A DNA stretch of 64,000 nt. Origin: Candidatus Omnitrophota bacterium. GTDB lineage: Bacteria; Omnitrophota; Gorgyraeia; Gygaellales; Profunditerraquicolaceae. Made by a program: the position numbers and the translations under genes. Positions 1 to 64,000 of this stretch are shown here, piece after piece. The first letter of the stretch is position 1. Each line of letters begins with the position of its first letter. Below the pieces are notes generated by a model. That model was given only the letters and a program-made list of their open reading frames with translations, did not search any database and was not told where the DNA came from. The stretch lies in NCBI GenBank assembly GCA_016208765.1, contig JACQXK010000004.1, positions 148,243 to 212,242 of the forward strand. The letters run 5' to 3'.

Positions 1-330
1 ATACATGGCAAGCGTACGCAAAACCTTATGGCCGCATTTGTCATACCATGGTGGATTTGAAAAGATCCTATGAAATCTTTCATTAGGCCCCAAGCAATCA
101 TAAAGATCTCCGCAGCAGACCTTCACATTTTTAAATCCACTCAAGTTGGAAACAGCATCATCAAAAGCATCTCTATTAATATCAGTGGCAACAAAACGGA
201 CACCCTCAACGTTCTTACTGCTCATAGCTATAGCAGCAGTCAATATTCCGCTTCCTGTGCCAATCTCAAGCAAACGGCATCCAGTGTGAATATTTTGGCC
301 TATTACATCAACAGCCATATCTGCCAATTG
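1..330 (-). other. HemK/PrmC-type (NPPW motif IV) SAM methyltransferase domain, truncated by the window edge (LEIGTGSG ... DINRDA ... NPPWYDK)
   Basis: Motif I at about 235..260 and NPPW at about 25..45. Confidence 0.55.
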
Positions 331-3300
331 CGGCTCATTATTAGGGAAAGTCGTTTTGGTAGCACGTATTCTTAGCGGGCTTGAACTTAGAGTAGAAATA
401 TGAAACAATTCTATTCTTGCTCTCACAGCCGAAGAGGCGCTGTAGATAGAACCGTCATAATTATTTGTTAACCACATGGGAGAAACCGCCGAAGAAGCTG
501 AAAAGTTTCCCCAGTTATCAGATATAATAGCTATGTCCGGTAAGCAACAATGTTCAAGATAATGCATAAACGACGGAGTATTTATTCTCCAGAATATTTC
601 TTTTACCCTTGATGTACCCTTATAATTATCCAGAGGCATGCTTCTCTGAAGGCCGACTAACGGATTAACCAACATCTGTATTTTAAGATCAAAATATTTA
701 CGCCATTGCCTCACTAAAAGATAATTCCTTTCAATAATCACCACGCTCCTCTGGCGATTAATCGTTAATAATTGCGGTGGCAAAGTCAACTCTCCGCAGC
801 CATCTTCATCATAGAGATCCTTTAATTCATAAATTAATTCATTTTCCCTGCCTTTATTAAAATTCCTTATACTCCTTAGCAATCCTCGTAATACAATCTT
901 TCTTGAAGAAATTTTATTATCATTTACGCTAATTTCATTATGCGACAACTCGTGATCCTGCCAACGATGGCGTTGCATTCTTACACGTGTAAGCAAATCT
1001 CCGTGAATTAACACTACATTAATACCCTCTAACCCTAACGCATATTTAATTTTTTCTGCAGTTGCAGTCTCAAATACAGAATTACCATCTAAAGCCACAA
1101 CTAAGGCTTTATCAGGATTCAGCCTCATAGCAGAAAGAATTTTCTCTTTCAACATATGTATAGTAGAAATATTGTAACCATATCTATCCACCCGCTTATA
1201 TCTCATCTTTTCTAAGAATTGCCTGTACTTGTCATTAAAATATAGGCCCAGTCTTTCTAATTCATCTTTCGGTTGAGCCGGGATTCTGGAAATACCTTGC
1301 CAATCTTCATCCTGCCATACTGCCGATTCTCTTTCATTAAGCCTCTTTCCGATACAGTTATGAACAATTAAGTCGTAGTCTGGGGATATCTTATGCACTT
1401 GATAGAATTCTCTAATTCGCGGCTCGCCAAAACAAACATTCCCTCTCTGCTTAAGATTATAATACCGGGTTTTCTCATCTGCCCAGACATAAACCGTAAT
1501 ATCAAACTTGATACCCAATAAATCTTGCAGTAACAATATAAATATACTATCAATAACAATTACCCGGCGGCGATTCTGCAGCAATAGCGATTCAACATGA
1601 CGCTTGAATGACTCGGTAGTTAATTCATCAAAAAAAACCCAAAGAAATTCTTCTCCATACGGCCGAGCAAAGTCATCAACACGTAAATGTAGTGTTCCAT
1701 CTATTTTCATTAACTTTACAAGTTCCTTACAAAATTCGGATTTTCCAACGCCTGACTCTCCGTCAACAGCCACAAGAATCGGGCGGTAAAAATCTGTCTC
1801 AAGCATTTTATCTTCAATTAACTCTTTCAATAAAGAAACAGCCTGAGCAGGGAAAATTGTGGCTTTAGCATCTGGAAAGATAGGTGAGACTTCCATTCTT
1901 CCTTGCGTGGTCACTAATGCTGCCGAGGTGGCGCTGCGCTTACCCACTGTCCCGAACGAATCGGAAACAGTTTCCGAGTTGTTAGGGAAACTGGGACCTT
2001 TTAGCACCACCGATGATGCGCCGTTTTCGGAATTAAATTTTGAATTAAGTATTGTGTCCCCGGAATTGCCGACAGAAAAACTTGAAGGATTTTTTTGCGG
2101 ATTAAAAGGTATTAGAACGATTCCTTCCTCCGGCGGACCGGTTTCCAAAACCACTGAAGAAAATTGGCTTACTTTTAATATGGCCTGTTTTGCAGCAGCT
2201 TTTAATTTAAAAGGATAGTCGCCGCGCAATATCTCCCCTATTTCTCCCAACACCCACAATGGATCAGAATAACAATTTAAATCATAAAAAAGCCAGAAAA
2301 TCGGAACAGGATTGCATGAGCCTGAATCTTCATTCATTTCTGAGAAATAGATATATTTCAGAAGGCGCAATGATTCTGCATACTTGCTTCTCTTATCAAG
2401 TTGCATGCACAAATAACTATAGAGCTCAAAAGCGCAAAATGACAACTGATTCGTCACAAAATTCTTTCTTTTATTTTCTCTGGCCCACAAACAAAAGGCA
2501 AATTTCATACATCTTGAGAGGCCTTCATTCTCAGCCAATTTAGCATACCAAAATAAAGCCAAAATGAGCTCTTCAGGAGATGCTTCCTTAGCGCGCTTAC
2601 CATTTGAATCTTTAATTTTGGAATAACAATTATTAATTTTTGTTTGGCTGGAATATTTTGGATTTAAAATAAAGGACATAAAATCAATGAACCTGTTCGC
2701 TTTAACAGCAGCCTTCAGACGATGATACAAACTAAGAGAAAATTCAAGCGGCATACTTAATTGTTCTAAGCATTCTATCAGCAAACCAATTCCATCAATT
2801 TTGTCTTTCAGCGCAGAAGAACACATTTTCTCAGGATCAAAACCAGGCTCATTATTTCCCACTAAGTTTATTCTTTTTAAGAAAAATTTATGCATATAAG
2901 CAAAAAAGTTTCTTTTTCTATAAGCATCGTGCGCCTCGTAAGGAATACGAGAGAACTGATCTTTCCCATTAAAAGCTTCCGGATCGCGGCCGCTTTGTGA
3001 TAGAAAATATTCCGATTCTTCCAAACTATCTTCTTTAAGCTCAAATTTAGGCATACCCCATCTATTCAGGAATATATTCATTACCCCTCTTATCGTATGG
3101 CCATTTTTGTCCCAAAAAGGATGTAACTCCATAATAAAACGCCAATGAGCCTCGGAGATTAAATCAATTATCCCAAGTTTATCAGGATTATTATTTAACA
3201 AATCAAGGATACTTTTGACGCCCTCTGAAATTTCTTTTCCGGTAAAAATTGGGAAAGTCTTAACAATATCACCTTGGCAACCTTCATCTAAAACAATATC

Positions 3301-6300
3301 TCTAATCTTACAGGAAAGGCCACTCCGGTATTTTCCTGCCAGGTCTGATCTCAAATCATACTCTCTGAAATATAAACAATTTAGCAATATTACATCTTCT
3401 TCAGTAAGTGGCCTGTTCGCACAAACTAAATAATTAATTAATTCACAGGAAGTGGCAATTTCAGGGCCGTTTACTTCTTTCTCTATGGCAGAGCTGGAGT
3501 TATGATAAAAATGTCCACTGTTTTTCACCGACGAGTGAGCTCCACGTTTACCCACTGTCCCGATTGATTTGGAAACAGTTTCCAAGTTGTTCGGGAAACT
3601 GGGCTCTTTTAGCACCGCCGAGGATGTGCCCTCATCGGAATCAAGTATTGCGCTGCTGCCGGAATTCCCCTTCCTGCGTTCTTCCTTTCTCCTGGCAGTA
3701 GCAATAATAAATTCATTGACTGATGCACATATGCCTCCAACGCCTAAGCCGCTATCTTTGATTGTAGCTTCAGGATCCCTGTCTCCATTAGCTGCACCCC
3801 AATTATTTATACCTAACGCCAAAACTGGATTCCTTGTCTCCGGGAAAGAAGTAACGATGCCGCTAACAGTATCTGCCAGAATCTCCTTCTTGGCGTCATG
3901 TATTGTGATAATAGGAACACCGTCGATAATCAATCTCTTAAGATTTTCTTTTAATGATTCGTTATCTAATCTTGTAACATTAATAATCCGAGCCGTAATA
4001 TTTTGGCGCCTGAGCCACGATGTTGCCTCTAATACGTTCTTCATTATTGCGCCCGTTGCTATAATAATTACATCCGGATGTTCAATATCTTCCCCTTTTA
4101 TAACATAGGCCCCCTTGCTGGGCTGAGAGGAACAACCTCTGTCTAATAAGGGGATGCTTAATCTTGAGGTCCGGAAATATACCGGCCCCTGCCTGTTTAA
4201 TGCTAGCTTCACAAGTTGATAGGTCTCATTCTGGTCAGATGGCTCAAAGTATGCCAATCCTGGAATATATTTATATAAAGCAGGTTCGTAAGAAGATTGG
4301 TGGCTGCGCCCCCCCATAGCCGAAGTTACCCCTCCAACTGCCCCCCAAACAATTACAGGTAAATTATCCTGTGCAATAAATCTGATTTGCTCTGCCATAA
4401 GATTAACCATGGCCTCATAGACCACAATGACCGGCCTCTTTCCTGAATCAGCTAAGCCAGCGGAAATGTTGGCCATACATTGTTCACGAATCCCGATATC
4501 ATAATATCTCCCAGGAAACTCCTTTTTGAAGACATGAATCCCCAAAGAATGAGAACCGGTAAGATCAGAGGTCAATAAAATAATCCTCGTATCGCTATTG
4601 GCCAGTTGGATCAATGATTGAATAAAGGCCGAAGTATTATTTTCGGGAATCATTTTTTCAGAGCTGAAGAACATTGCCTCAGCCTCAACTGAATCTGTGG
4701 CATCTTCAGGCATCTTCCTTATTGGTTCTTTTGGCCGATCAGAATTACATTTATGAATAAGCTGCTCAAGAGTAAGCCTGGTTTGCTTTTCTAATAAATT
4801 TATCTTTGCAATCAATTCGGCTTCCCCTTGCCGGAATAATCGTGGACTGGGCTGGCCATGGTGCCAACGTGAATTACCCTTCAAAGAATCCTTCTCCATA
4901 TAGGATATACCCTTGCCCATGATGGTATTGGCTATGATAATGGTAGGCATCTTTGTTTGCTTTCTTGCCTGTCTCAAGGCTTTGCCTAACGCCGCAAAAT
5001 CATGTCCATCAGTTTCTATAACGCGCCAACCACTCATTCTCCAAAAAGCCGAATTACAGGTCCTTGTATTTTTGGATGTTGGGCCGCTCAGCTGCAGATT
5101 ATTTTTGTCCATAATGGCGATCAAATTCGACAGCCCCAAGAAAGGCGCGACAGCTGCCGCTTCGCTAATCTGCCCCTCTTCTGATTCTCCGTCTCCGAAA
5201 ATCACATACGTATGACGCGATCTTCCGTCAATTTTATCAGCAAGGGCCATTCCGATACCTCGGCCAAGCCCTTGCCCTAAGGATCCAGTAGAAGCCTCTA
5301 TGCCGGGAGTCAAATAAGCGCAAGGATGGGCATTTAATATAGAACCGTACTTGCGAAAGTTATTAAGCTCTCTGCGCTCAAAGAAACCAAATATAGAGAG
5401 TATTGAATACAGGGAGGCTGCAGCGTGGCCTTCGGATAAGATCAATCGATCGCGATTTTGCCAATCATCAATTATTAAATGCCCATCGAAATATAGAGAA
5501 ACTAAAATATCTGTAACACTATAGGTCGCGCCAAAATGGCCGGCGCCGGACATTCTTATCATATCAAAAGCATCTTTTCTTACCCATGCGGCGACCAATT
5601 CTAAATCCTTTTGAGTAAATAGAATTTTAGGGCCGTTTCCTTTTATCCTTATGGCAGAGCTGGAGTTATGATGGAAGCGTCCCTTGTCTTCTGCCGCCGA
5701 GGAGGTATCATTTCTTGAATTAAATATTGCATCACCGGAATTATCCGAGATTTTCTTTATCATTAAATCACGCAGCAGAGTTTCGCCACCCATATAAAAA
5801 GCAAGAGAATTATGACTTCTAAAATATGTATCAAGCTCTTCCATCTTGATAATTGTTTCTTCTCCAAACAACTCAATAAAAGCTGGCATATCGCCTCTCA
5901 TATAGATACTCAAGAACTCTTTTATCGTAATACCATAGTCTGACAATATTAATCTTATTATTCCCCCAATCAAACTTCCTGCCGGAGACGGAAATTCTGG
6001 CTTAAATCCGGTCTCAAAGCTCGAAAAAAGCATAAAAACTGTTTTTGAACGAGCAAGCTGTAAGCTAATTGCTTGGTTAGAGAACTCCATATAGGCAGTG
6101 ATAGCCAGCCATTCTACAACACCTTCATTAACCCAAGTAATACCGTTACCCTGAGCAATATAATGGAAGGCTTCATGGAGAATCATCATTATTTTTCTAT
6201 TTGTATTACAGGCCTGAAACTTATTTTCATTTAAAATTATCTTATGATAAAATGGCGTTAACATTCCATCCGCTGTAGGCATATGCTGTAAAATTCTACC

Positions 6301-9300
6301 AAATAATACATCCTTGGAGAAATCTTGAAAAGAAAAACCATATTTATCGCAAAAACTCCTAGAAATCTGAACAGCTATTTTAATCAATGCCTCTTCGTCT
6401 TTATTTGGCTTTCTTGAATACTCTATTTCTCTTAGGATGACCTCAAAGAGTCCTTTAAAAACCCGCAAAAGAACCTGTTCCTTGGTTTTGGCTTCCCAAT
6501 CTCTCCTAATTTCTAGAATCCTTGCTGTGCCGTAAATAAAACTTGCTGAAAGGGCAATCTCAGAACTAAGTACTGTTTTCTTAAACTTCCTAAAAACTTT
6601 ATTTACTGACTCAATATATTCTCTCGCGTATATTCTATTTGATTTACTGACCGCCGCCGAGGAAGCACCCTGCTTACCCACTGTCCCGATTGATTTGGAA
6701 ACAGTTTCCGAGCTGTTAGGGAAACTGGGCCCTTTCTCCTGCGCCAAAGAAGCATCTGTTGCTGGCGAGCTGGATTGATTTTTAGGCTTAAATATTATTC
6801 TTTGCGGCAAATAGTTCCCATCTCCTCTTCCGCTAAGAACAGCTATGTAAATTCTTGTTCCCACCTGTTCGAGATGAATTTCTTTTCTAGTAAATAAGAT
6901 TTCGGCGCAAGCTTGATTATAATTAAATTCGTAACTATCCCTTATCCCCTTAGCCTCAACAAAAAGAACGGCTGCATCAAACCAAATTAATAAATTGTAT
7001 AAATTCGCAAAACCACAACCCCGGCGAGGACGAGTTCGCTCAAAAAGGTCAGCCGGAAACACGATTCTCTTATCAATGCCCAAGCCGTTATCAACTGCTA
7101 AAAGCTCAAAAATATTCCCCTTATCACTATTTCTGCCTTGAACCATCCTGCAAAGAATAATCATATTTCTATCTGCGGGGATATATTCGGTATTCAAAGC
7201 TAATTCGTGAGCAACTTTGCCTGCTGCCTCCTCAAGAGAAGTTGGTTGCTTATAGGCTTCTCTTACAGTGTCTTCAGCCATAAATTTACATCTACCCGAG
7301 AGAGGACTAACCAAACCATCATCGTATTCAAATGTTTCACGCGGCTCATCAAAAGTAGAAACGAATTTATAATCTTTAAACGGAAACCTATTCACAAAAC
7401 CTTGTCTATCACCGGAATCAAGATATCGCATTAGAACAGCAAATAAATCATTAGATTCTGACAAACCTGGTTTAGATTTCTCCTCAACAACAGAAGAAAC
7501 TCCTGCCAACGATGAACTTGCGCTACTTCTTGGCCGAGTTAATGAAATGAACGCTAAACCGATGAGAACTGAATAAGATAATGGTTTCGGCATAAAAAAA
7601 TCAGCGCCTGCATCAAAAACATCTCTTCTGTATAAATCTGAATCAGAGCTCATAGCTATAATCGGGATAGTCAAGCCTATGTTTCTGGCCCGCCGAATCA
7701 ATACCGGGCCGGTCATGCCCGGCATACAGCAATCAGTAATCAGAATATCAAAACTTTTCTTTGAATCTAATAAGCGCGAGGCTTCCAAGCCATTTGACAC
7801 CATTACATATTCAATTAGAACTCCTTTACCCTTTTTTCTAACCCAGCTATTATAATGCTCAAAATGGCCCTTAATTGTCATTTGTAAATCATCATCATCT
7901 TCTGCCACCAGCACTCTTTTCTGGATAATTTCATCGGGAAGACGAATATTACAGCCTTTTTTATTATTCTCAGGCACTGGGGAAGAAACAGTTACTTCAA
8001 CAAAAGGATTAAATCCCAAATCGCTCCAAAGAAGAACCCTCTGTATCCATAATTCCTTTGCAGAAAAGGTTGAAGAATTTTGCCTGATATAAGCAATGCC
8101 ATGCTGCGGAGAGATCAAAAAATTATAGCTCCACAACCTGCTATAAGTTAAAACAGAAATATCTGATGCCTTGCTTATAAAACCATTGCCGCGGCCTGAA
8201 GCAATCTTTAAAATTTCCTCATATTCTTTAAGATAATCTGCCCTGCAGATTAGATACCCCCTGGCATTACGATAATCAAAATTATCCGGCAAGGTCTTGA
8301 GATAATAATTCCGAGTGCTGTAAACCGGCAGGTTATCGTGAATCAAAACAATCTTCTCGCCTTTAGTGGTCAAAACTACGATAATTAAAAATGTGCAGCC
8401 GTTAAAAAACTCCAGAGAATCATAGAGGAAATTTCCGGATATTAACGGTGAAATCCTCGTATGCCCCTTCACCCGGAATAAACGACGGCCCCCCAGCTTT
8501 CTTGAAGATTCCCTGCTGCTGATAAGTTTACCTGTAATGGCATTATAGCTATGCACTAAGCCGGGGAATTTTGATGCAGAAAGTCTGGCCCGCGGTAACC
8601 ATGGTTTCGTGTTTAAAATACTGTTATATTCTTCAATAATCCTTATAAAATCAGCTTTTTCTTCCAACGCCGATGAGGCAGGTAAAATATCCTGAGGGAT
8701 CCAATATTTCTTAATCTGCCCCAACAAATCTTTTTCCACAAGCTTATTTAATCTTTCAAGATTATCGGAAAAATGCTTAATCTGCTCTTCTATTGCCTCT
8801 TTTCTTAACCTAAACTCTTTGGTTTTCATAAGCAATGCTGCGGGCTGACCAAAAACATCTTTAAAAACATTCACAAAATCCATATCAAATGAGCAAGCGC
8901 CTTCTATTAAATAAACCAGTTGTAGTAATTCATTTCCGTAATCTATAATCAGGCCCTTTTCTTCTTCCCCAAATTCCTGCTTGCCTGCACAAACTAATAA
9001 TTGCTCAATTATTCTACGAGATGATCCAATAAAATTAAAAACAGCTGCCTGCTTTATTTGAGCGGATTCTTTATTGTCTTCTATCGGAGATGCTGAGCCT
9101 TTTGCAGGATGAACAGAAACATCCTTTTTTACAGGAGAAATCACGCTTTCTTTTGGAATCTGTAGTAAAAGAAACCGGCCATTTATTTTAAATGCCCTAA
9201 GGCCTAGCCTTAAAGAATATTTCTCAATCTGTCCGCCAAGAAAACGCATCGCAGCCTCAGTACAAAACATACCACCATCTCTAAAACCAGAATTATTAAC

Positions 9301-11259
9301 TTCCAAAGTAGCCAAAGCACTAACATTAACGAGGATCAGGCTTCTTTTTTTACCTGAAATCAAATCATCATAATAGCAAACACCTCCTGTCCAAGAACAG
9401 CATGGATAATCTTTGCAAATTTGAGGCTTGCAATCATTATGCAAACAACAGTGGCTTAACCAAGTCAATCTCCCGGATGCATCCATATCCAATACAACCG
9501 CCATTGCGCGGCAAGCAAATGTTTTATAAAGATAAACAAACAAATCTTCCGGAAGGATCTCGTTGCCACAAAATGATCCTAAACTATCTATATCATCAGC
9601 ATGAGCTAAAATCACATCCTTGTTCAAATATCTGCCATCGGCATATTCTTTATTTAATGCACCGGATATTTCAACAGGATGCATAGAGAAGTCATTATGG
9701 TAAGGAAAGAAACAACACAATCCATCTGCGCACTGCTTGCTGCCATCTGGCCTTTCCCCATAAATAAAAGGCAGCAAATCTATTTTTCCATTATTTAGCG
9801 ACGAAGAACTCTCGGCTGGTTTACTATGAACCTGCGCAAACTCAATCTGAAATCTTTCAGAGATGGATAAAGGAGATGAAACGCCTTCTGCGCGAGAAAC
9901 AGAAACGTCAGCTGTTTTACGAAGCACATCCTTAGTTCCAAAAACAAAGAAAGCTGTCTCCCCCCAGCTGGCCAAATAATAATTATTGGTTAGCCCCAAT
10001 TCTCTATTTAAATTAAGCATGCCTCTCTCACCGGCCTTCTTCTCTAGATAATCTAATCCCCACATCCCAAAGAAAATAATCACAGACCTATCTTGAGCAA
10101 GAATTTTAAAAGCATTATTTATGGCTTTTCGCATTTCTACCCGTTTAAATTTGAAATAAACATCACAAAGCATAAAAATCGCAGAAACTGAATTCATTTT
10201 AAAAGGAAGCTTGTTCAAGAAGCTTTCTTTTAAAATATGAAAGTTATTTAAGGGCTTATTTTTGAGATTACTTAGAATAGAATGAATATTCTGAGCATCC
10301 GGCTCAATGCCATAAGTTTGCAAATGGGGATAAATCTCTGCTATTAAACGGGAATCCGCAGCTTCACCACAACCAAAATCAACAACTAAGCTATCTTTTC
10401 TTAAATCAAGTTGCGATAAAATCTTTAGCATTTTATCCCCGCAGAAAATCCTTAAATCAAAAAAATCATTTTTACCCCCGGAATATACATCAGTACAAAA
10501 CGAATACCCATGCTCAGCATCAGCAAATCTTAGCGGGTCGCTCAATTGTCCGGTTACTACCAAATAGTCTCTTAGGCTTTGCATATCCGGATCAAGGACT
10601 TCTTCCACATGAAAATCTATTACAAATTTAGGATATCTTACATTTAGATGCGTTAACTTCGTCAATTCTTGCTCGCTATAAACACCGTATCTTAAAAGCA
10701 ATTCGTCAGGAATAATAATTCTTTCCTTTTCGTTAATCGGGCTAAAAGATTTTCCATAAAGAGGTCCAGATACTTCTATTATTTGACTGACAAGATCCGA
10801 GAATTCCCCTTCCATTGCCGAAGAAGAACAATTCCGGATAGACATAAAATACTTTCCCCTCACAGGGTCACCAGGAATAACAACTCGCGGCATTTCAAAG
10901 ATACGTTCTTTTTCTAGAGAGAAATACTCAACTCTTTCTACCATTAGCGCATTACCGTCAATACCATGAATGGCTGCCCTGATAGTTATTTCGCTTGCTC
11001 CTCTTGCATGGCACCATTGATGAAAGTTTAATGGATTAGCATAATCAATAATCAAGATCTTTCCATACTTATTCAAAAGTGAAAACGCCTGTCTTAAAAC
11101 AAGCTCAATTCCCCTCATGCTGTTTAAAGATTCATTGAACAACACTAAATCAAAACCTCCGGGGGCCGCAATTTCAGGGCAGTTCAAAGCAACACGCTGC
11201 ATAATCTCAATAGCTGCATAAGCACTTCCGACATAAGCACCAGACCAAAAACCACACAT
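1..11259 (-). CDS. Second very long minus-strand ORF (plus coordinates congruent to 1 mod 3), 3'-partial (runs off the left edge, at least 3,750 codons). Very likely the continuation of the giant gene after a -1 frameshift.
   Basis: Manual reverse-complement codon-by-codon translation from the ATG at 11257..11259 (frame opens after TAA at 11266..11268) down to position 1 found no stop and gave coherent domains (methyltransferase motifs, REC, GHKL, transketolase, Fic-like, P-loop kinase, NPPW methyltransferase). Frame consistency was verified at 9259. It is not in the ORF track because it has no in-window stop. The off-frame minus ORF density is consistent with a single open frame. Confidence 0.75.
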   Translation of the reverse strand, partial: MCGFWSGAYVGSAYAAIEIMQRVALNCPEIAAPGGFDLVLFNESLNSMRGIELVLRQAFSLLNKYGKILIIDYANPLNFHQWCHARGASEITIRAAIHGIDGNALMVERVEYFSLEKERIFEMPRVVIPGDPVRGKYFMSIRNCSSSAMEGEFSDLVSQIIEVSGPLYGKSFSPINEKERIIIPDELLLRYGVYSEQELTKLTHLNVRYPKFVIDFHVEEVLDPDMQSLRDYLVVTGQLSDPLRFADAEHGYSFCTDVYSGGKNDFFDLRIFCGDKMLKILSQLDLRKDSLVVDFGCGEAADSRLIAEIYPHLQTYGIEPDAQNIHSILSNLKNKPLNNFHILKESFLNKLPFKMNSVSAIFMLCDVYFKFKRVEMRKAINNAFKILAQDRSVIIFFGMWGLDYLEKKAGERGMLNLNRELGLTNNYYLASWGETAFFVFGTKDVLRKTADVSVSRAEGVSSPLSISERFQIEFAQVHSKPAESSSSLNNGKIDLLPFIYGERPDGSKQCADGLCCFFPYHNDFSMHPVEISGALNKEYADGRYLNKDVILAHADDIDSLGSFCGNEILPEDLFVYLYKTFACRAMAVVLDMDASGRLTWLSHCCLHNDCKPQICKDYPCCSWTGGVCYYDDLISGKKRSLILVNVSALATLEVNNSGFRDGGMFCTEAAMRFLGGQIEKYSLRLGLRAFKINGRFLLLQIPKESVISPVKKDVSVHPAKGSASPIEDNKESAQIKQAAVFNFIGSSRRIIEQLLVCAGKQEFGEEEKGLIIDYGNELLQLVYLIEGACSFDMDFVNVFKDVFGQPAALLMKTKEFRLRKEAIEEQIKHFSDNLERLNKLVEKDLLGQIKKYWIPQDILPASSALEEKADFIRIIEEYNSILNTKPWLPRARLSASKFPGLVHSYNAITGKLISSRESSRKLGGRRLFRVKGHTRISPLISGNFLYDSLEFFNGCTFLIIVVLTTKGEKIVLIHDNLPVYSTRNYYLKTLPDNFDYRNARGYLICRADYLKEYEEILKIASGRGNGFISKASDISVLTYSRLWSYNFLISPQHGIAYIRQNSSTFSAKELWIQRVLLWSDLGFNPFVEVTVSSPVPENNKKGCNIRLPDEIIQKRVLVAEDDDDLQMTIKGHFEHYNSWVRKKGKGVLIEYVMVSNGLEASRLLDSKKSFDILITDCCMPGMTGPVLIRRARNIGLTIPIIAMSSDSDLYRRDVFDAGADFFMPKPLSYSVLIGLAFISLTRPRSSASSSLAGVSSVVEEKSKPGLSESNDLFAVLMRYLDSGDRQGFVNRFPFKDYKFVSTFDEPRETFEYDDGLVSPLSGRCKFMAEDTVREAYKQPTSLEEAAGKVAHELALNTEYIPADRNMIILCRMVQGRNSDKGNIFELLAVDNGLGIDKRIVFPADLFERTRPRRGCGFANLYNLLIWFDAAVLFVEAKGIRDSYEFNYNQACAEILFTRKEIHLEQVGTRIYIAVLSGRGDGNYLPQRIIFKPKNQSSSPATDASLAQEKGPSFPNSSETVSKSIGTVGKQGASSAAVSKSNRIYAREYIESVNKVFRKFKKTVLSSEIALSASFIYGTARILEIRRDWEAKTKEQVLLRVFKGLFEVILREIEYSRKPNKDEEALIKIAVQISRSFCDKYGFSFQDFSKDVLFGRILQHMPTADGMLTPFYHKIILNENKFQACNTNRKIMMILHEAFHYIAQGNGITWVNEGVVEWLAITAYMEFSNQAISLQLARSKTVFMLFSSFETGFKPEFPSPAGSLIGGIIRLILSDYGITIKEFLSIYMRGDMPAFIELFGEETIIKMEELDTYFRSHNSLAFYMGGETLLRDLMIKKISDNSGDAIFNSRNDTSSAAEDKGRFHHNSSSAIRIKGNGPKILFTQKDLELVAAWVRKDAFDMIRMSGAGHFGATYSVTDILVSLYFDGHLIIDDWQNRDRLILSEGHAAASLYSILSIFGFFERRELNNFRKYGSILNAHPCAYLTPGIEASTGSLGQGLGRGIGMALADKIDGRSRHTYVIFGDGESEEGQISEAAAVAPFLGLSNLIAIMDKNNLQLSGPTSKNTRTCNSAFWRMSGWRVIETDGHDFAALGKALRQARKQTKMPTIIIANTIMGKGISYMEKDSLKGNSRWHHGQPSPRLFRQGEAELIAKINLLEKQTRLTLEQLIHKCNSDRPKEPIRKMPEDATDSVEAEAMFFSSEKMIPENNTSAFIQSLIQLANSDTRIILLTSDLTGSHSLGIHVFKKEFPGRYYDIGIREQCMANISAGLADSGKRPVIVVYEAMVNLMAEQIRFIAQDNLPVIVWGAVGGVTSAMGGRSHQSSYEPALYKYIPGLAYFEPSDQNETYQLVKLALNRQGPVYFRTSRLSIPLLDRGCSSQPSKGAYVIKGEDIEHPDVIIIATGAIMKNVLEATSWLRRQNITARIINVTRLDNESLKENLKRLIIDGVPIITIHDAKKEILADTVSGIVTSFPETRNPVLALGINNWGAANGDRDPEATIKDSGLGVGGICASVNEFIIATARRKEERRKGNSGSSAILDSDEGTSSAVLKEPSFPNNLETVSKSIGTVGKRGAHSSVKNSGHFYHNSSSAIEKEVNGPEIATSCELINYLVCANRPLTEEDVILLNCLYFREYDLRSDLAGKYRSGLSCKIRDIVLDEGCQGDIVKTFPIFTGKEISEGVKSILDLLNNNPDKLGIIDLISEAHWRFIMELHPFWDKNGHTIRGVMNIFLNRWGMPKFELKEDSLEESEYFLSQSGRDPEAFNGKDQFSRIPYEAHDAYRKRNFFAYMHKFFLKRINLVGNNEPGFDPEKMCSSALKDKIDGIGLLIECLEQLSMPLEFSLSLYHRLKAAVKANRFIDFMSFILNPKYSSQTKINNCYSKIKDSNGKRAKEASPEELILALFWYAKLAENEGLSRCMKFAFCLWARENKRKNFVTNQLSFCAFELYSYLCMQLDKRSKYAESLRLLKYIYFSEMNEDSGSCNPVPIFWLFYDLNCYSDPLWVLGEIGEILRGDYPFKLKAAAKQAILKVSQFSSVVLETGPPEEGIVLIPFNPQKNPSSFSVGNSGDTILNSKFNSENGASSVVLKGPSFPNNSETVSDSFGTVGKRSATSAALVTTQGRMEVSPIFPDAKATIFPAQAVSLLKELIEDKMLETDFYRPILVAVDGESGVGKSEFCKELVKLMKIDGTLHLRVDDFARPYGEEFLWVFFDELTTESFKRHVESLLLQNRRRVIVIDSIFILLLQDLLGIKFDITVYVWADEKTRYYNLKQRGNVCFGEPRIREFYQVHKISPDYDLIVHNCIGKRLNERESAVWQDEDWQGISRIPAQPKDELERLGLYFNDKYRQFLEKMRYKRVDRYGYNISTIHMLKEKILSAMRLNPDKALVVALDGNSVFETATAEKIKYALGLEGINVVLIHGDLLTRVRMQRHRWQDHELSHNEISVNDNKISSRKIVLRGLLRSIRNFNKGRENELIYELKDLYDEDGCGELTLPPQLLTINRQRSVVIIERNYLLVRQWRKYFDLKIQMLVNPLVGLQRSMPLDNYKGTSRVKEIFWRINTPSFMHYLEHCCLPDIAIISDNWGNFSASSAVSPMWLTNNYDGSIYSASSAVRARIELFHISTLSSSPLRIRATKTTFPNNEPQLADMAVDVIGQNIHTGCRLLEIGTGSGILTAAIAMSSKNVEGVRFVATDINRDAFDDAVSNLSGFKNVKVCCGDLYDCLGPNERFHRIFSNPPWYDKCGHKVLRTLAMY
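600..1130 (-). other. Degenerate PRK-like (pseudokinase) domain: Walker A replaced by ALDGNSVFETAT, family tail retained (VVIIERNYLLVRQWRKYFDLKIQMLVNP)
   Basis: Fold-level motif order retained; the P-loop lysine is lost. Confidence 0.3.
1350..1800 (-). other. PRK/uridine-kinase-family P-loop kinase domain, second copy (VAVDGESGVGKSEF ... VIVIDSIFIL ... DITVYVWADEKTRYYNLKQRG)
   Basis: Walker A GESGVGKS anchored at about 1740..1795. Confidence 0.5.
1918..2030. repeat. Linker cassette copy L1 (core CCCACTGTCCCG at 1943..1954, palindrome GGAAACAGTTTCC; peptide ASSVVLKGPSFPNNSETVSDSFGTVGKRSATSAA)
   Basis: Direct nucleotide-level similarity to copies L2, L4 and L5. Confidence 0.8.
2880..3420 (-). 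other. Fic/Doc-like domain with a variant motif HPFWDKNGHTIR (canonical HPFx[DE]GNGRxxR)
   Basis: Motif at about 3090..3130; the Gly-to-Lys and Arg-to-His changes suggest altered or no AMPylation activity. Confidence 0.35.
3484..3670. repeat. Linker cassette copy L2 (ATGGCAGAGCTGGAGTTATGAT, then the CCCACTGTCCCGATTGATTTGGAAACAGTTTCC core at about 3550, then CACCGCCGAGGATG; peptide SSAVLKEPSFPNNLETVSKSIGTVGKRGAHSSV...HNSSSAI)
   Basis: Read directly. Confidence 0.85.
3750..5640 (-). other. Complete transketolase-like unit: TPP-binding N domain (GHAAASLYSIL; GDGESEEGQISEAA), pyrimidine-binding domain and C-terminal domain
   Basis: Signature transketolase motifs in the correct order over about 620 aa; bracketed by linker cassettes at 5650..5750 and 3484..3670. 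Confidence 0.65.
5650..5750. repeat. Linker cassette copy L3, partial (ATGGCAGAGCTGGAGTTATGATGG ... CTGCCGCCGAGGAGG; peptide TSSAAEDKGRFHHNSSSAI), without the PIGTVGK core
   Basis: The 24-nt ATGGCAGAGCTGGAGTTATGAT is identical to that in L2. Confidence 0.7.
6140..6200 (-). other. HExxH zincin-like motif with a downstream Glu (MMILHEAFHYIAQGNGITWVNEG)
   Basis: HExxH plus NEG 14 residues later (gluzincin-like spacing); domain limits unknown. Confidence 0.3.
6650..6780. repeat. Linker cassette copy L4 (CTTACCCACTGTCCCGATTGATTTGGAAACAGTTTCCGAGCTGTTAGGGAAACTGGGCCC; peptide GPSFPNSSETVSKSIGTVGKQGASSAAV)
   Basis: Nearly identical to L2 over about 60 nt. Confidence 0.85.
6960..7170 (-). other. GHKL/HATPase_c-like domain 3 (LAVDNGLGIDK; GCGFANLYNLL) immediately after the REC domain
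   Basis: D-box and G-box motifs. Confidence 0.4.
7560..7930 (-). other. Response-regulator receiver (REC) domain, canonical (VLVAEDDDD ... DILITDCCMPGMTG ... AMSSD ... MPKP)
   Basis: Acidic pocket, phospho-acceptor Asp, Thr/Ser and Lys positions all present. Confidence 0.6.
10130..10480 (-). other. Class-I SAM methyltransferase domain (VVDFGCGEAADSRLIAEIYPHLQTYGIEPDAQN)
   Basis: Motif I plus an acidic residue in the GIEPD stretch; in the downstream frame. Confidence 0.5.
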
Positions 11260-11268
11260 CCATTTTTA
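11184..11268 (-). other. Frameshift junction splitting a class-I SAM methyltransferase domain (motif I, VGCGDGS, is in the upstream frame; post-I and motif II/III, FDLVLFNESL...LLNKYGKILIID, are in the -1 frame). Candidate one-nucleotide indel near the TTTTT/GGTCTGG run at 11238..11250.
   Basis: The giant frame reads ...ILSVGCGDGSLEKLLLKNGCVVFG then nonsense and a stop. The overlapping -1 frame reads ...GAYVGSAYAAIEIMQRVALNCPEIAAPGGFDLVLFNESLNSMRGIELVLRQAFSLLNKYGKILIIDYANP, matching the equivalent stretch of the two other methyltransferase copies in this gene (GISVEGWELDRQLY / GINVFGCEFNNSLY). Confidence 0.6.
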
Positions 11269-14200
11269 AGCAAAAGTTTTTCTAAGCTTCCATCTCCACA
11301 GCCTACTGAAAGAATCCTGGTTTTATTCCCGGCACAAGACTCTAATATTAATCCAAGAATGAATTTTCTGTATCCTAAGCATGATATCGTATCCGTACTC
11401 ATTGTTTTCCTATCTATGTTGTCATAAATTTGCCGCAATACCTGGGAGTAAACCCTCTCCAAGAAAGAACTCCAATTATCAATCGGAGCCAAAAACGCAC
11501 TAATAATTGCCTCGTTTAAAGGAAACTTAGTTACACTTCCTTCCTTTTGATAGGCTTCAGCGCTTTTCAAATCTTCAAAATATAAATAAAGCAGAATGAA
11601 AAAACGCAATAAATCCTGATAGCTTAATAAATTAGCAGAAAAATAGCTGACAACTTCTCTCAGGAAAACGCATATTTTCAGTTCCACTTCTTCTCCAAAC
11701 ATGGAAGATAATCTAAGAATAAGAATTCTATCCGCTTCAGCATCATTAACCATGCCAGAAAAATTTTCGTTATCAACCATGCAAGATACTTTCTTAACCA
11801 AGCCACTATGCTTTCCATCATCGGATAATAACTGCAAAAGGCTATTTAAGTCATATTTACTTACTGTCTTACTCCCAAGCGCAGAAGACACACAAGAATT
11901 ATCCATGTAAACTTCACATAAATTTCCATTAGCAAGAGATTTAAGAACGGAGGAAGAACTATATCCATTGTTAACGATAGAGAATTTTGTTCCCAGATTC
12001 ATTCGGCACCAAAAACTATTGTTGATTATTAAATCGTACTCTGGAGTAAAAGCGTAAATATGCGGCAGCTTGATAGACATCTGTATTGCTTTCTCATTAG
12101 AAACTCCCCTTGATATAAGATTCCTTCGGCGAGTGGCCGGACTGGCGCGAATATTTAATTTTATATCAAACTGCGCACCCAACTTAAGAAGATATTCTTC
12201 AAGATACAATGCTTTGAACCCCTCAACAATAAGCACCTCTGTCCGGACATCTTTCAAAACCAAAGATACCTTATCTCTCAAACTATACCAATCAATTATT
12301 TCACATAACTGTTTAGATTCATTTTTATAATTTACGACAAAGTCATCAATATGCAAAACTTGCACCCTATAATCTTCTCTTAAAAGCGCATAAGAAATAG
12401 TTGTTTTACCCACAGCCTTCTTCCCATCAATGCAAACTAACACTGTTGTCCCTAAGGAAAGCTGGCCTTTTTTAAAATCAATTACCTCTTTTAAATATCC
12501 AAATGCCCATTTTGCCGGAACCGGTATTCCTAAAAAGTTCATAAATAATGAGGCTAATAATTTCAGGAAATTAATCGTTCTATAGATAACTGGCGACGCT
12601 TTAATATTTTGACCCACCGCAGAAGAAGAAATTGAGTCAATTTTAAACATTAGCTTCTCGCGAAAATCCCTATATCCTTTTTGCTTATTTATAAAATCAT
12701 AATAAACAACATTCCTGCTAATATTGTCGCGGAATGTTTCATCAAACCCTATCAATAACGTTGGAACAAGTATTCCTTGTTTCTCAATATCTCTTATCAA
12801 TCCAAGCCCCTGATTGTCTTTTAATTCGCAATCAATAATAAACACATTAAATTTTTTAGTTCTTAACAAGCATAAAGCCGCATCTTTGTCGCTAACAAAA
12901 CTACGCTCAATTTCAATTGATCTTCCTTGGTCATTTAAGAAATAGTTAAACGAATCAAAATACTGAATTATATCTCTACGCAATGGAGCAAAATCAGTTA
13001 CAACTAATACCTCCACAGTTATACTACTAGAGCTCGCTCTGCCTCTAATCTTAACCGCAGATGAAACGCTCCTCTCTTTGTTAATATTACCTAAAGTTTT
13101 TCTTAGTTTATTTTTAAGCTCCTCTGGGCCTTTTACCAATATCGCCTTTATTCCGATTGCCTTTGCCGGTTCAATATCAGTTTGCTTGTTATCCCCCAGA
13201 GAAACACATAAATCAGCAGAAACTCCCAGCTGATTAAGAAGCCACACAAAATCCTTAACACCGGCAGAACCCTGAGCAGAATAAACCGCGTTAAATAAAT
13301 CATAAATTTCTAATATTCTAAGCACCTCTTCAGCAGTTATTTTTGCGGAACTTGTATACAGAATAAATTTATACCTGCCGGTGGCTTTAAGCTCAGCAAG
13401 AAGCATTTTTAATTCCTGGTCAGGAGTTTTTAAATATTTGCTAACTTGAATACCGGCTTGAGCCATAAATTTCTCTTCAGCAGATATCCCAAGAGCTTTT
13501 AAAACTTCTACATCCTGCACCCAACTGTTGCTTTTACCCTTTAATTCATTTCTAACAACACTAAACTTCCTCTTTGCGTGATTTATTGCAGGCAATTTTA
13601 ATTGTGCTTGGATTAGCGCATAAACTAAATTCATATATGCAGCGATAAGGCTGCGGCAATTATGCAAGGTTTTGTCTAAATCAAAAATTAGATAATAAAT
13701 CGGGCTGGATGAAGTTGGGAAGTTATAAATAGCAGGAGCTGTGGCAGCTATTTGTGCCGGCGGTGCCCTGCCACGCACAGCTAAATCCCAACCTGAAATA
13801 TTAGTGATGTTTCTATTTTCCTTATCCAGCGCTGAAGACGCCCGGCTGATTATTGCGTTAGCAGCAGCATCCGGACTAATCTGCCAGAAATATTCTGCGG
13901 GTTTTTTCCTAAAATCACTGCGATATCTTGACCATGCTCTATCTAATTTATTCTGCGGTATACTTTTTGTAAGGCGCAAAAAACAATCAGCTTGTATTTG
14001 CGACCACGTCCGCCATAACGGCTTGGGAAGGCCCGCAAACCTTTCCCAGTATATATCCGGAATAATTGCCGCGTTTATTCTTCCAAGCCCTTGGCGCTTT
14101 GCAGTTAACCCAGTAACAAAGAAACCAACGGAAGAATAATACTCTGTTAACCCGTTCTTCAATTTTGCTTCTTCTTCATCCAAACCGCAAATAGCCCAAA

Positions 14201-17200
14201 GCACAAAATGGTGTATCTTGATCATAAAATTTCCCAAATTACTTATTTCTTGAACTCTCTTTGACTCGTAATTATTCCTTTCAGCGAATGCATAGGCAAA
14301 GTTCAACTCTTTACCGGCGGCTACGCGAAAATCAGGCCCATAATCCTGCAGCTTGAATTTCAAGCTATCCCAGCGATCTTTGGTTACAGGAAAAAAGAAT
14401 TTAGTTTCCTCACCTTTCAAGAGTTTTAAAATATCAAACCCATATGCCTGCTTAAGATAAAATAAAGCCGACAGATCATCCATAGAAAGAGGCTCGCCAA
14501 AATCACTGATATTAATCCCAACGCCCTTCCCATTCTTTTCCCGGAGGGAATATATAATTTGAATAAGCTCATTAATGAATTCTGCTATTTTTATAGTTAT
14601 ATTACTCCTAATATTTAAATCTTGCTGCAACTCTAAAACGATTTTTCCTGCTATAATTTCACCAAAATTTTCCGGCGGGCTTGCAGAATGCTCCATATAC
14701 ACCAATGCTTTTTCTGCTCTGGCGGCTGCTGGAGAAGAAACGACATCATCATTTCCTACTTCTGTCAGAAACTCCCGCAAAAGTTTTGTATAACCTCCTA
14801 ACATGTGAACTTCGTGCCCGCGATAAAAATCTACAAAACCACAAACCTTAACACCATTATATTCTAATTTCTCTACAATCTTTTGCTGACAATCAAATAC
14901 AACTATAGGATCCCGAGTGCCTCCCATCCAAAATACCGGACAAGTAATTTTAGAAATTATATCCCCATCAAACACGCTGCCTTCTTTTTCCAAATCCATA
15001 TCTCTTATCATTAAAATATCCCAAATAATTGTAGAAACTGGAGTTTGCTTACCACGAAAAAATAAATCATCAAAAAACTTTTCAGGAATAGGATTAAATA
15101 AATGTGCAATTCTGCCGAATATTTTCTTCACAATACTGCCTGATAATTTAGAATTTAAAACTCCGTCACGATAAAGCTTGTCAGCAAAACTAAGCATCAT
15201 TAAATAAGCCTTAAGGCTCTTTTGGTTATTCCTAGAGGCATTATCAATCGCCTTAACCGCGCCAAGAAAATACTTCTCAAATAAATAATAAAACTTCTTC
15301 AATGATTTCGGGTATAAAGAATGCAAGAAATTAGCTGAACCCGCAGAAATAACCAGCGCTCTGACTAATCCCGGTTTTAAAGCAGCGAAGCACATTGAAA
15401 GCGCAGCACCCATACTGTGTCCAAAAACAAAAGCTTTTTCTATATTTAACTTCTCAAAAACCAATAATAAATCATTTGCCCTTACTTTTGCCTGAGGAGG
15501 TGCTGTGCCTAATGTTGAACCGTTATACCCACGCCAAGAAACACAAACGATCCTAAATCCGTCTTCAAGTAAAGCCCGAATCTGACAAGCCCAGTCTTTT
15601 AAAGGATCTCCCACGAGAAAACCATGCAAAAATACAGCTGTTGGGCCATTATCATTGCCGCCATACATAAATTTTATTTTGGCACCATCACTAGTAATAA
15701 TTTCGCTGTGACAAAAATTAAGAGACCTTAAGAAATGCACTGCTCCTTCCCATTCCGAAAAACCGCCAGCATAATCCCCAAATACTTCTTCAGGCTTCAT
15801 TTCAATTGGCGATGAAGAAAAATCTCCATTTTTAAAAATAACTCCGGCATCTTTCTGGCTAAAACCACCATCAATAGTAAAAAAGCGATGCGAGAATTTA
15901 TTTCTTAATAAATCCCAAGGATAATATTCAGGCATAAAAACTACAAAACAAGCGCCTTCTTTTAATGTCTGGGCAACATAGGCCTCCAATAAATCCAAAC
16001 GATCAGTACCACAACCGCCATAATAATGGTAAAGCAGATTATAATCTCCCAAAGGCGCCTTTAAGAAATCTCCTTGCATGAACCTAACCTGTCCTTCTCT
16101 TATCGTTCGTCTCTTATTTGGCGATAGATACAGAGATTGCCACGAAAGAGCAAGTTGATACAAAGAGTTGTTAAATTCACAGCCGAAAACATTAATGCCG
16201 AATAAACAAGCCGCCATAACATCAAAGAATCCATTTCCTGAACCAAGATCAAACAAATTAATCTCGGAAGGATTCAAATGAATTTCTCTTATTGCCTTAG
16301 ACAATAAAACAATTGCTTCCGGCCCGGAGGGCCAATGCAGGCCCTTTTCAGTTTTCTTTTTTAAACCTGAGAAATATTTCTTAAAGAAATCAGACGCGTT
16401 TTCTCTGCTTATCAGCTCATCAAATTGCCAATTTAAGAAACTTATAATAAAATCTAATGCTCTTTCCCAAGCCTGCTTGTCATATTCATCGGCGCTTAAA
16501 GGCAGGCGATTATTTTCTATGACCGCCGAGGAGGCGCGGGTTTTGATTGCTTGGGTTAACGCAGATGAGGAGCCGTTAGAAGGATTACAGCGGTTATCAG
16601 ATTTAACTTCCTCCCAAATCTTATAGAAGAATTTCTTAAATTCTGAGCTTAAGTTTTCAGGAGACGTAAAATTGACTCTGAGCATTTGCTCAAAATCTTC
16701 ATTAGAGCTTTCCTGGAGATAATACCGGAATTGATTATAAAATGCTTCTCTCTCATAAGCTGAAGCTAAATATTCTTGAGATGAACGATAGGCGCCTAAT
16801 TTTATATCGGGATTACTAACCCACTGCTTGTGATGTGTTAATACGTGTACTAAAATCAGGGGCAATTTAGATGAATTAACATAATTTTGGTTAATAATAA
16901 TTGCGTAGCCCTGCTCAGAATTAAGTTTTGTTTTCAATCCTTGCTCAAATACAACAAATTCCTCAAGAATAACTGGTTTTGAATAAAAAGTTGCGCCAAA
17001 AATATACGTGCCAAGCTTTTCAAAATAGTAATCCGGCATGGTAATAATATTTAGCGCTCCTGCCTCTTCTTGCGTTATCCCGAAGTACTTAACAACATCC
17101 GGGGAAACTTTATTAATATCTAAACTCCTGGAATCATTCCTATAAGAATTAACAAATGTCCGATAAAAATCATCTCTATATAAAGATTCAATCGTGCTGC

Positions 17201-20200
17201 ATCCGGAGAAAATAATAAAGAAAGCACTGAGAATAAAAATGGTAAAAATAAGAAGAAGTGTTGAGGATTTATGTTTGAGGTTTGATAAAATGCTAAAGAA
17301 TCTATAAGGAACCCAACGCGGACGTCTTTCTAACCTACCGTTAATTGACATTGATTCTTCATAACTAATTATGGCATCACGGGTATTACGGACATACTCA
17401 ACAAATCTATCCCATTTTGCGTCTGCTTCCGGATCTCCAAACCTGGGAATTTCAAAATAATATTCACTAAAGTCAAAATAACGCGGTTTCTGCTCCTTTG
17501 GTTTAACCTGAAACCCATCCGGCAAAACCAGATAAATAGCAATAAGGTAGCCATCGCTGTTATATAAAAGTTCAAATTCAGCAGTATTTAACAATTCAAA
17601 CGGAAGAATATCCAGCCCTTGCGGAGCATTAAACCTATCCTCCAACTCAGGAACCTGAATCCTGTGTATAGTGAGGTTATTTGGCCCCTTCCTGATAGAA
17701 ACCCAATAAGCCTGCTCCAGATCTAGAACAGACAAAAGTTCCCATGCTGGCATTCTCTGAACTTTTTCTGCAATTTCTCCCGAGATAACCCGAGGGACAA
17801 GATGAGAAATATCTGTTGCGATTTTTTCATTAGCTTCTTTTGCTACCGCGGATGATGCGCCCCGCTTACCCACTGTCCCGATTGGGTTGGAAACTGTTTC
17901 CCGATTGGGTTGGAAACTGTTTCCTTTCTCGTTTCGTAATGAATGCAATGCCACTTCTAAGAAATCAGGGTTATTCGTCAAGTATTCTACAATTCCAACA
18001 TTTAGCCCAAATCCTGTTGGTCGTGAAAACCTCTTATCAGTACATAATAAACATGAAACGAGCCACGTCCACTCATGATCTTTTCTTACCACACGGACAT
18101 ATTTATTTATTACCAACCTGATAGTTTCGTAAGAGAGGTTAAAATCACCGTTAAATTTCCGGTATCCTTTACCTGTAATTCTAATTTGAATTATTTTCCA
18201 ATCGCGCTCCCTTTGCTCGTTGCTTCTATACCGCAGGTGATTACAAACACCTGCTAAATAATTAATTAAATACTCCTTTAATTTTAAAAGCTCCCCACCA
18301 AGTATTGATTCTAATGCAAGTTCCTCGGAAGACTTGCCACTTGCAGGAATGCTGTCTATTTTATTTTCATCTTCTCTTCCGGGATTGGGGGCATCTAATG
18401 TCAATATTTCCCTTTTTGCTTTGTTGAGTTCAGTTAAAGCCTCGGCCTTTACTCTTCTTGCGATATAACGCTCCAAGGCGTAATCTAACCTTAACCCATG
18501 AAGGACTTTTTCCGGGTCAAAACATTCTATTGATCTGTATAACGCCTTTAGCCCGGCCTTATCAAACCTATCATTCTTTTCCTCGTTCCCAGGGAAAATC
18601 ACTCTTTTTATTGTTTTTGCAATCACATAATTATAGATATTTGCTAAAACTATTCGCGCTGCGGCATTGCCTCTTTTTACTTCAATAATCAACTGACGAA
18701 TTTCGTCATTTCTTAAATCCGGTGTTCTACTTGTATTCTGCGACTTCACAACTAATTCATCTATCTTTTCCTTACCGATAATCCTATAAACAGCATCTGG
18801 GTCATCACAAGATTGGCTCCATGGAGGATAACAACTTTGAGCTCTTGGATTATACAAACCCTGCTCCTGAACCGTATCAATTATCTTAAGCATTTTCTTA
18901 AGGGCTATTACTTTTTCAGTAAGGCTATTTCCTTTCATTAATGCCAAAGTCGGAGTAAATCTCCTTGGATAGCAATCCCACAGAGAAATTTCTCTCAAAA
19001 AATGAGTAGGAAGCAAGCTTCCAGGGCCTTCTAACTCACAAGTTTTTGAGATTTCAATCAAAATAGCCAACAATGCTTCTTTTGATACAGTCTTCCATCT
19101 GATCAAAATACAGTTTTCTAAACAGCTCCGCACAAAATCCAAATCTTGATAACACCTACCCTCACCAATAAACCCTGTTTCTCTTTCCGCAGACGAGGAA
19201 TAATTCTCTACAGCAGAACTTGAGCTGCTTGGAGTAACATTTTTCCACCATTCATAAAGCGCATGATAATGCAAAGCATTCTCCCGCTCTACACCAAAAT
19301 CTATGTAGCTAGATAATATGTAACGCGCGTTTTCGTTAATTAATATGGGAACCCACGCTTTATGCTCTTTAGACAAACCTACCCAAAGCCTAATAATGTT
19401 TTCTTTACTAAACCTATGATCCACCAACAAACACTGGATAAGATAGGCAAGAAATTCCGGATGGATAGTCTTTAATGAACCTCCGATATTTAAATAATCA
19501 GCCTGAAATAATTTCAACAGCGCTTCCCATAGCAGATCAGGGCGATGATAGTAAACAAACTCAATATACTCAGCTGAATCTTCGCCATAACTCACCATTT
19601 CTAACATTTTCATCTCAACATGCCGAAAATCATCAAGGCTCTTAGTTCCCCAGACAATTGACATCATCCCGGATGGCAATTTCCAACCCACCTGCCAATG
19701 AGGGCATGAATCAAGATAAATCTCACAAAGCCCATCCTCAAATAATCTTTGTTTAAGCCTGTGCTCAATATACCCGCCAAAATATTGATCTACATAGTTC
19801 TCAAAGATATCATTCATGCCGAAAGAACGATTTAAATTAATTGCATACACATTCATATTTTGCTTTTTTAAGAAATGAATAAACACCAAGACATCATTAA
19901 TAGATACATCAATTTCTGAAAAATCACGCGGCGTGTAACTGGGAACTTTTGTGCACTGGAAATAATCATAATCAATTGTAACAATTACGGGAGTTGTTAT
20001 TTCTTTAGCTAATAATTTATTTTTAACTCTCGTAATATCATTATCCAAAATAAATTGAATATCCTGTTTTGCCTTGGCATCCTCACATCCTGTATTCCAA
20101 TATGGATATATTTGTATAATATCCTTAACAGTCCCTCTATTAAGTGCAGCTGCCAACCAATTATTATTATAAACCTCTACTCCACAGAAGGCCGTGTCTC

Positions 20201-63917: not shown

Positions 63918-64000
63918 CCTTTCAATAACTGCCCCATCCCAAGTTACAAATGCAGCAAAGGCCGCATTAATTAAATATTTAAGGTACCCCGTAGGCCCTG

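Follow-up and report, generated by a model that had tools for sequence, protein, structure and literature searches.

Giant genes of the Omnitrophota have been described as single open reading frames (ORFs) that are tens of thousands of codons long and carry a tiling of unrelated domains, among them methyltransferases, HAD, TPR, receiver and P-loop kinase-like domains and membrane segments (West-Roberts et al. 2023, bioRxiv 10.1101/2023.11.21.568195; bioRxiv 10.64898/2026.06.07.730766). In draft assemblies, Illumina-only ones included, single-base indels and local assembly errors reportedly break these genes into pieces (West-Roberts et al. 2023, bioRxiv 10.1101/2023.11.21.568195, section 6). 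Here, we analysed a 64-kb stretch of DNA (64,000 nucleotides (nt); hereafter the window) from a metagenome-assembled genome (MAG) of a Candidatus Omnitrophota bacterium (GenBank assembly GCA_016208765.1, contig JACQXK010000004.1, positions 148,243 to 212,242). A first-pass annotation of this stretch had placed a frameshift within an S-adenosylmethionine (SAM) methyltransferase domain at 11184..11268. We find that the frame changes inside a single methyltransferase domain, and that the window is part of one giant gene, from whose record a base is probably missing. This gene shares with the published set both its source, a Candidatus Omnitrophota MAG, and its tiled architecture. The published set comprises proteins of at least 30,000 amino acids (aa), whereas at least 22,770 codons of the window gene are visible and its 5′ end lies outside the window.

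Stop-free frame analysis showed that the window is entirely coding on the minus strand, to which all window features below belong, and that only two frames are used. The upstream frame (frame A) extends over 17,604 stop-free codons (63998..11187), with its N-terminus beyond the window, and terminates at a TGA (11186..11184). The downstream frame (frame B) is −1 relative to frame A and covers 3,755 stop-free codons (11265..1) before running off the end of the window. On its 5′ side, frame B is bounded by a TAA (11268..11266), which sets the upper limit for any frame switch. The stretch 11184..11268 is bounded exactly by these two stops, and the first-pass annotation was essentially right about its position and content, including the at least 3,750 codons past the break (5,170 aa in total). 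An overlap, given there as 75 nt, is present and measures 79 nt open in both frames, or 76 nt if counted from an ATG at 11259 to the end of the TGA. Likewise, the U5/GG run placed at 11238..11250 exists, with T5 at 11251..11247 and GG at 11246..11245; an A5 run occupies 11267..11263. Frame A ends in ...RILSVGCGDGSLEKLLLKNGCVVFGLVLMSEVLMQLLRLCSVLL at its stop, and frame B opens after its TAA with KWMCGFWSGAYVGSAYAAIEIMQRVALNCPEIAAPGGFDLVLFNESL and continues to LLNKYGKILIID. From the ATG (11259..11257), frame B is identical in all residues (100%) to GenBank MBI4706705.1, a 5,170-aa protein named 'MAG: response regulator [Candidatus Omnitrophota bacterium]' on a 225,280-bp contig. GenBank thus calls the downstream frame as a separate gene, starting at this ATG.

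The proposal that the frameshift bisects one Rossmann-fold methyltransferase is borne out by profile comparisons. Frame A holds motif I (SVGCGDGS) followed by KNGCVVFG, and the −1 frame holds FDLVLFNESL and LLNKYGKILIID, both located where the first-pass annotation had put them. With Pfam Methyltransf_23, for which the curated cut-off is 27 bits, the end of frame A alone scored 15.0 bits (profile positions 22-49) and the start of frame B alone 19.9 bits (positions 79-128), both below threshold. Fused, the two halves scored 37.3 bits (positions 22-128) and passed it. Because the halves fit complementary ranges of the profile and pass the threshold only when fused, they constitute one domain written in two frames. 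When a library of 1.84 billion representative proteins was scanned in full by HMMER with a fused query, nine ordinary, unrelated small methyltransferases were returned, as was MBI4706705.1. From the nine independent methyltransferases we built a local hidden Markov model (HMM). The N-terminal part in frame A (11354..11238), comprising beta1, motif I, the following helix and beta2 (GCVVFGL), matched model positions 19-57 with 30.5 bits, and the C-terminal part in frame B (11166..10909), comprising GGFDLVLFNESL and LLNKYGKILIID, matched positions 83-180 with 36.2 bits. All nine methyltransferases align through the junction as one gap-free stretch. The two halves are one class I SAM-methyltransferase domain, not a chance resemblance.

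The fused domain carries the elements of class I SAM methyltransferases (Methyltransf_23/_11/_25/_31) in the right order and with the right spacing: the GxGxG loop of motif I (VGCGDGS), the beta2 strand G-x-x-V-x-G-L, the FDLV strand and the LLxxxGxLxI strand. The loop follows beta1, and SVGCGDGS in frame A matches the VGCGDG of the nine homologues; the distance from motif I to FDLV is the same as in these homologues. Unlike them, the window domain stands in two frames as written and acquires the acidic residue that ends beta2 only after a one-base repair. This residue, which binds the SAM ribose, is an Asp in 9/9 homologues, all of which have G-x-D at the end of beta2; neither window frame has it in the record (GLV... 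and SGAY...). The split domain lies together with a second methyltransferase in a module of ~720 aa (11960..9810), bounded by SSSSV (codons from 11960) and SSSSL (9810).

Two further explanations of the junction were considered and excluded. An intein, intron or inserted element would separate the halves by additional sequence, and there is none, their spacing being equal to that of the homologues. A compensated double frameshift is excluded as the frames differ across their entire lengths.

Only one relative of the gene was found, MBI4982112.1, a single 3,278-aa ORF on contig JACROS010000038.1 from another Candidatus Omnitrophota MAG. It aligns with frame A residues 14372-17353 at 62-74% identity and with frame B residues 486-726 and 2816-3067 at 57-65% identity. 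Since homologues of both frames lie in this one ORF, the two frames derive from one polypeptide and one gene. Sequence comparison thus points to a giant gene of at least 22,770 codons (17,604 upstream in the window and 5,170 downstream), about one fifth or more of which lies beyond the window. A more distant methyltransferase on the relative's contig also aligns across the junction (34% identity, E = 2e-7). It reads VLGLDT where the window sequence, once repaired as described below, reads VFGLDA.

Searches of genome and metagenome contig collections with the junction protein recovered no related locus. When they were repeated with the conserved upstream module, aligned, as the query, only the contig of MBI4982112.1 came up among genome contigs and none among metagenome contigs. 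Neither the 800-aa fused junction nor the 188-aa repaired domain had any hit in a word-indexed protein search, a weak null, as an identical 400-aa stretch of MBI4706705.1 was missed too. The frame A ORF (>17,604 aa) is absent from the library of 1.84 billion representatives. Very long proteins seem to be under-represented or unindexed in protein databases, and nulls for giant genes need care.

The GenBank annotation amounts to a true boundary between two giant genes, with a 5,170-aa 'response regulator' starting at ATG 11259. The downstream ORF is indeed deposited as MBI4706705.1 and the ATG is present; a product begun there would start MCGFWSG. Such a boundary would fall within the methyltransferase fold, neither half of which reaches the family threshold, and would separate sequences whose homologues share a single ORF in the relative. 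The first-pass annotation had named a ribosome-binding site and start immediately downstream as the mark of a true gene boundary. We found an ATG that lies inside the domain, with no Shine-Dalgarno sequence within range and no intergenic spacer, and a consensus scan of the minus strand identified no promoter and no convincing terminator. A gene caller picks the first ATG after a stop regardless of biology. Taken together, we regard a true gene boundary at this position as very improbable.

The lesion is non-programmed, and no signal in the sequence promotes frameshifting or reinitiation. In its layout, the locus resembles bacterial programmed −1 frameshifting, as in dnaX and IS3-family transposases, in that two long frames overlap and the downstream one, here fully open, is at −1. 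Unlike in those systems, there is no A_AAA_AAG-type heptamer, no properly spaced upstream Shine-Dalgarno stimulator and no downstream hairpin or pseudoknot, and the one relative found lacks the module in which the break lies. Our heptamer scan of the A/B overlap confirmed the earlier statement that it contains no canonical slippery site (X_XXY_YYZ in the zero frame). Two near-misses are present, G_GTT_TTT at 11253 (T5 run) and T_AAA_AAT at 11268 (A5 run), which could be taken in favour of a programmed shift; even canonical heptamers arise by chance in frame A (147 of 17,601 positions). The RNA downstream of both near-misses folds more weakly than its dinucleotide-shuffled controls, with z = +2.12 over 156 nt and z = +2.23 over 97 nt, and shows no stable stimulatory structure of the kind expected 5-9 nt past a slip site, and an Rfam scan of the overlap region gave no match.

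Nor would a shift at either site produce an intact domain. Frameshifting at the A run would remove beta2 (~72 bits against 97.9 bits for the best repair, see below), and at the T run it would leave the Asp unrestored. The runs known to support transcriptional slippage have roughly 7 to 9 bases or more, and the T5 and A5 runs are shorter. The relative's contig, one long coding region, is itself broken twice: by an out-of-frame deletion of ~23 codons (6694..6725 of JACROS010000038.1, judged against residues 8019-8043 of frame A in the window) and by an in-frame TAA stop (16540..16542), directly after which the frame resumes. Both breaks fall where the window is continuous. As they are elsewhere and of other kinds, breaks in these genes seem to arise sporadically in single lineages rather than being conserved, which also speaks against a programmed event. 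A programmed −1 ribosomal frameshift or transcriptional slippage in the 79-nt overlap, with some ribosomes completing the protein and the others releasing a truncated form, is in our view scarcely credible. The first-pass preference for an indel over programmed −1 frameshifting is upheld by the missing heptamer, RNA structure and Rfam element, and by a relative that has both frames in one ORF.

Joining frame A to the −1 frame takes one additional base or the removal of 3n+2 bases. We scored such repairs against the profile of the nine methyltransferases, covering one-base insertions and two-base deletions across 11270-11184 (212 distinct products). On account of a 9-nt direct repeat, deletions of 2 to 26 nt were also scored (487 products). 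Among the ~700 repairs, the top score (97.9 bits) was obtained by inserting an A between 11240 and 11239. The runner-up one-base repairs, at ~11216..11213, reached 95.1 bits, and all deletions of 2-26 nt scored below the +A repair, the best at 93.4 bits. The +A repair changes CTG GTG CTT to CTG GAT GCT, giving the product GCVVFGLDAYVGS (the repaired junction is also written VVFGLDAYVGSAYAAIEI), and restores the invariant G-L-D Asp at the end of beta2.

From these scores, we infer that a GAT (Asp) codon has most likely lost its A, between 11240 and 11239, with a plausible range of 11240..11213 for the site. The minus-strand DNA with the lost A present would read CTGGATGCT, and reading across the repaired junction would give, for example, ...VVFGLDAYVGSAYAAIEIMQR. 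Depending on the site of base loss within this range, the out-of-frame tail of frame A before the TGA comprises ~8-17 residues, 17 for the favoured site. Codon-usage change-point analysis placed the switch no finer than ~11259..11211.

The favoured site lies outside any homopolymer. The U5/GG run noted in the first-pass annotation was not the best candidate: repair at the T5 run leaves beta2 without its conserved terminal Asp and ranks outside the top 25 of the 212 one- and two-base repairs. Repairs at the A5 run scored ~72 bits, with beta2 removed. The 9-nt direct repeat (GTGCTTATG, 11240..11232 and 11225..11217, period 15) flanks the likely lesion and could not be connected to it. Alignment to paralogous methyltransferase copies, which had been suggested as a means of locating the indel, did not succeed. 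BLASTP of both halves against the translated window gave nothing significant and the local HMM matched no other copy in the window; the other methyltransferase copies there are too divergent to place the indel.

Regarding the origin of the break, the balance of evidence leads us to favour a local error of assembly or consensus that went uncorrected in a short-read MAG, an explanation that we consider about evenly poised between right and wrong. On this account, one base would be absent from the record within the class I SAM-methyltransferase domain of a single giant gene. Translation of the record as written would leave the methyltransferase after beta2, run through 17 wrong codons and halt at the TGA (11186..11184), with the remaining 5,170 codons left in the −1 frame. 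The real gene would be continuous and its methyltransferase intact. Frame B is open for 5,170 codons without a second lesion, and the lesion is therefore either unreal or very young. There is precedent for such an error in the phylum, where two adjacent giant ORFs became one gene of 74,983 aa once corrected (West-Roberts et al. 2023, bioRxiv 10.1101/2023.11.21.568195). Moreover, a gene that occupies several per cent of a small genome will gather its share of residual assembly errors.

The break may instead be a real, very recent mutation or strain variant that truncates the giant protein inside the methyltransferase domain and has not yet decayed, a possibility to which we give tentative credence. 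The 5,170-codon remainder would then be untranslated, or weakly translated with ATG 11259 as its start or through termination-reinitiation at UUGA (11187..11184). At the latter site, a TTG in frame B (11187..11185) overlaps the frame A stop and is a conceivable reinitiation point if the lesion is real; a start-like codon overlapping a TGA arises with three of the four possible preceding bases, and its presence here is expected by chance. A real mutation would agree with the position of the inferred lost base, which is not in a homopolymer, and with the large mutational target that a gene of ~70 kb presents. It would also agree with the probable assembly method. The relative's MAG was produced from Illumina reads by MEGAHIT assembly with IDBA-UD scaffolding, and the window MAG presumably passed through the same pipeline, judging by the neighbouring accession series. 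De Bruijn-graph contigs consist of k-mers seen in reads. The ~23-codon out-of-frame deletion and the in-frame stop on the relative's contig further suggest that giant genes could often carry real lesions.

These lesions may in turn be errors, as the relative's MAG has a name ending in '38_3', which by the naming habit of its laboratory probably denotes ~3x coverage. Also against a real mutation, an event that left 5,170 downstream codons intact would be extremely young, there is no ribosome-binding site or start context for separate expression, and the documented split giant genes of the phylum were resolved as assembly errors. The assembly-error explanation, for its part, has four points to contend with. 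The relative does not supply an orthologous intact copy of the split domain, as MBI4982112.1 is without the ~720-aa module that carries it. The favoured repair leads the next by just 2.8 bits. A one-base deletion outside a homopolymer is, on general knowledge, an atypical de Bruijn artefact and may be a true variant in some cells. Finally, the assembled sequence alone does not decide between an error and a real mutation, which are inseparable without reads. We infer an error rather than a mutation on the evidence above, at the strength already given. It is very unlikely that the break is both real and fixed in the population, with the two parts made as separate giant polypeptides through UUGA reinitiation (11187..11184) or from ATG 11259. 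If true, it would be a snapshot of giant-gene fission, tolerated through semi-autonomous modules separated by a recurrent (A/S)SSA(V/L/I) motif.

The domains of the window gene are mutually unrelated, an architecture described for Omnitrophota giant genes. Frame A contains Pfam matches to CofD, PFK, EamA and His_Phos_1, many TPR, two alpha/beta hydrolases, HAD and many stretches resembling helix-turn-helix domains. Frame B contains the second methyltransferase, Response_reg, the N, pyr and C domains of transketolase, AAA_18 (P-loop kinase-like) and MTS. Whole core-metabolism and transport domains sit inside one ORF: PFK (phosphofructokinase, 55149..55886), the EamA transporter domain (52569..53015) and a complete three-domain transketolase (3864..5592). 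We found no mention of PFK or transketolase in the two giant-gene preprints (West-Roberts et al. 2023; bioRxiv 10.64898/2026.06.07.730766). The receiver domain occupies 7564..7812.

The Omnitrophota origin of the gene is reflected in the identity of frame B to MBI4706705.1 and in the location of its nearest relative on a Candidatus Omnitrophota contig. By source and architecture, we would group it with the known Omnitrophota giant genes ('multi-enzyme metabolic cluster' / Archaeovorin-like). Of the domains typical of Archaeovorins, methyltransferases are present, whereas glycosyl transferases, glycosyl hydrolases, peptidases, NUDIX and SecA are not among the Pfam hits in the window, outside which about one fifth or more of the gene lies; the hits include PFK, transketolase, CofD and EamA instead.

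The modules shared with MBI4982112.1 (57-74% identity) are in mosaic order. In the relative, for example, counterparts of frame A residues 14372-14930, 15803-16771 and 16951-17353 and of frame B residues 486-726 and 2816-3067 follow one another without interruption, which implies that whole modules have been gained, lost or shuffled between related giant genes.

A short serine-rich motif, [SA]SS[AS][AVIL] (ASSAV, SSSAV, ASSAL and the like; hereafter the SSA-type motif), recurs throughout the gene. We counted 38 copies in the 22,774-aa product against 0.8 ± 0.9 expected from residue shuffles. The motif is equally enriched in the relative MBI4982112.1 (7 against 0.14 expected). Its serines are encoded by a mixture of TCN and AGY codons, and the constraint is therefore at the level of the peptide, rather than that of a DNA repeat. 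Copies recovered by the pattern count include those encoded from 11960 (SSSSV), 9810 (SSSSL), 19226, 16571, 16535 and 13034. The motif lies between domains and matches the breakpoints of the homology blocks shared with MBI4982112.1, which makes it look like a module junction. It could also be a candidate site for proteolytic processing of the giant protein; the cleavage or processing points of giant proteins are stated as unknown in the description of the published set (West-Roberts et al. 2023, bioRxiv 10.1101/2023.11.21.568195).

A longer linker, ~GPSFPNN(S/L)ETVS(K/E/D)SIGTVGK(R/Q)GA(S/H)S(A/S), recurs several times in the frame B product and mostly ends in an SSA-type motif. Copies are found at residues ~1510-1535, 2560-2590 and 4750-4780 of MBI4706705.1, and in the window at roughly 6700..6600 and 3560..3480. 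A similar linker, PNRETVSNPIGTVGKRGASSAV, is present in frame A at ~residue 15381 (window ~17858).

The frame break is an already known kind of blemish in draft assemblies of giant genes and adds no new biological feature. In annotation, both GenBank entries here should count as a single gene of at least 22,770 codons, interrupted or wrongly split, and the name 'response regulator' for the 5,170-aa product covers one of its many domains. Censuses of giant-protein length from draft MAGs will undercount genes that are broken like this one. The SSA-type motif seems worthier of follow-up than the frameshift, which itself teaches little biology. If real, the frameshift would be a very young truncation and a handle on the dispensability of the downstream modules of an Omnitrophota giant protein.

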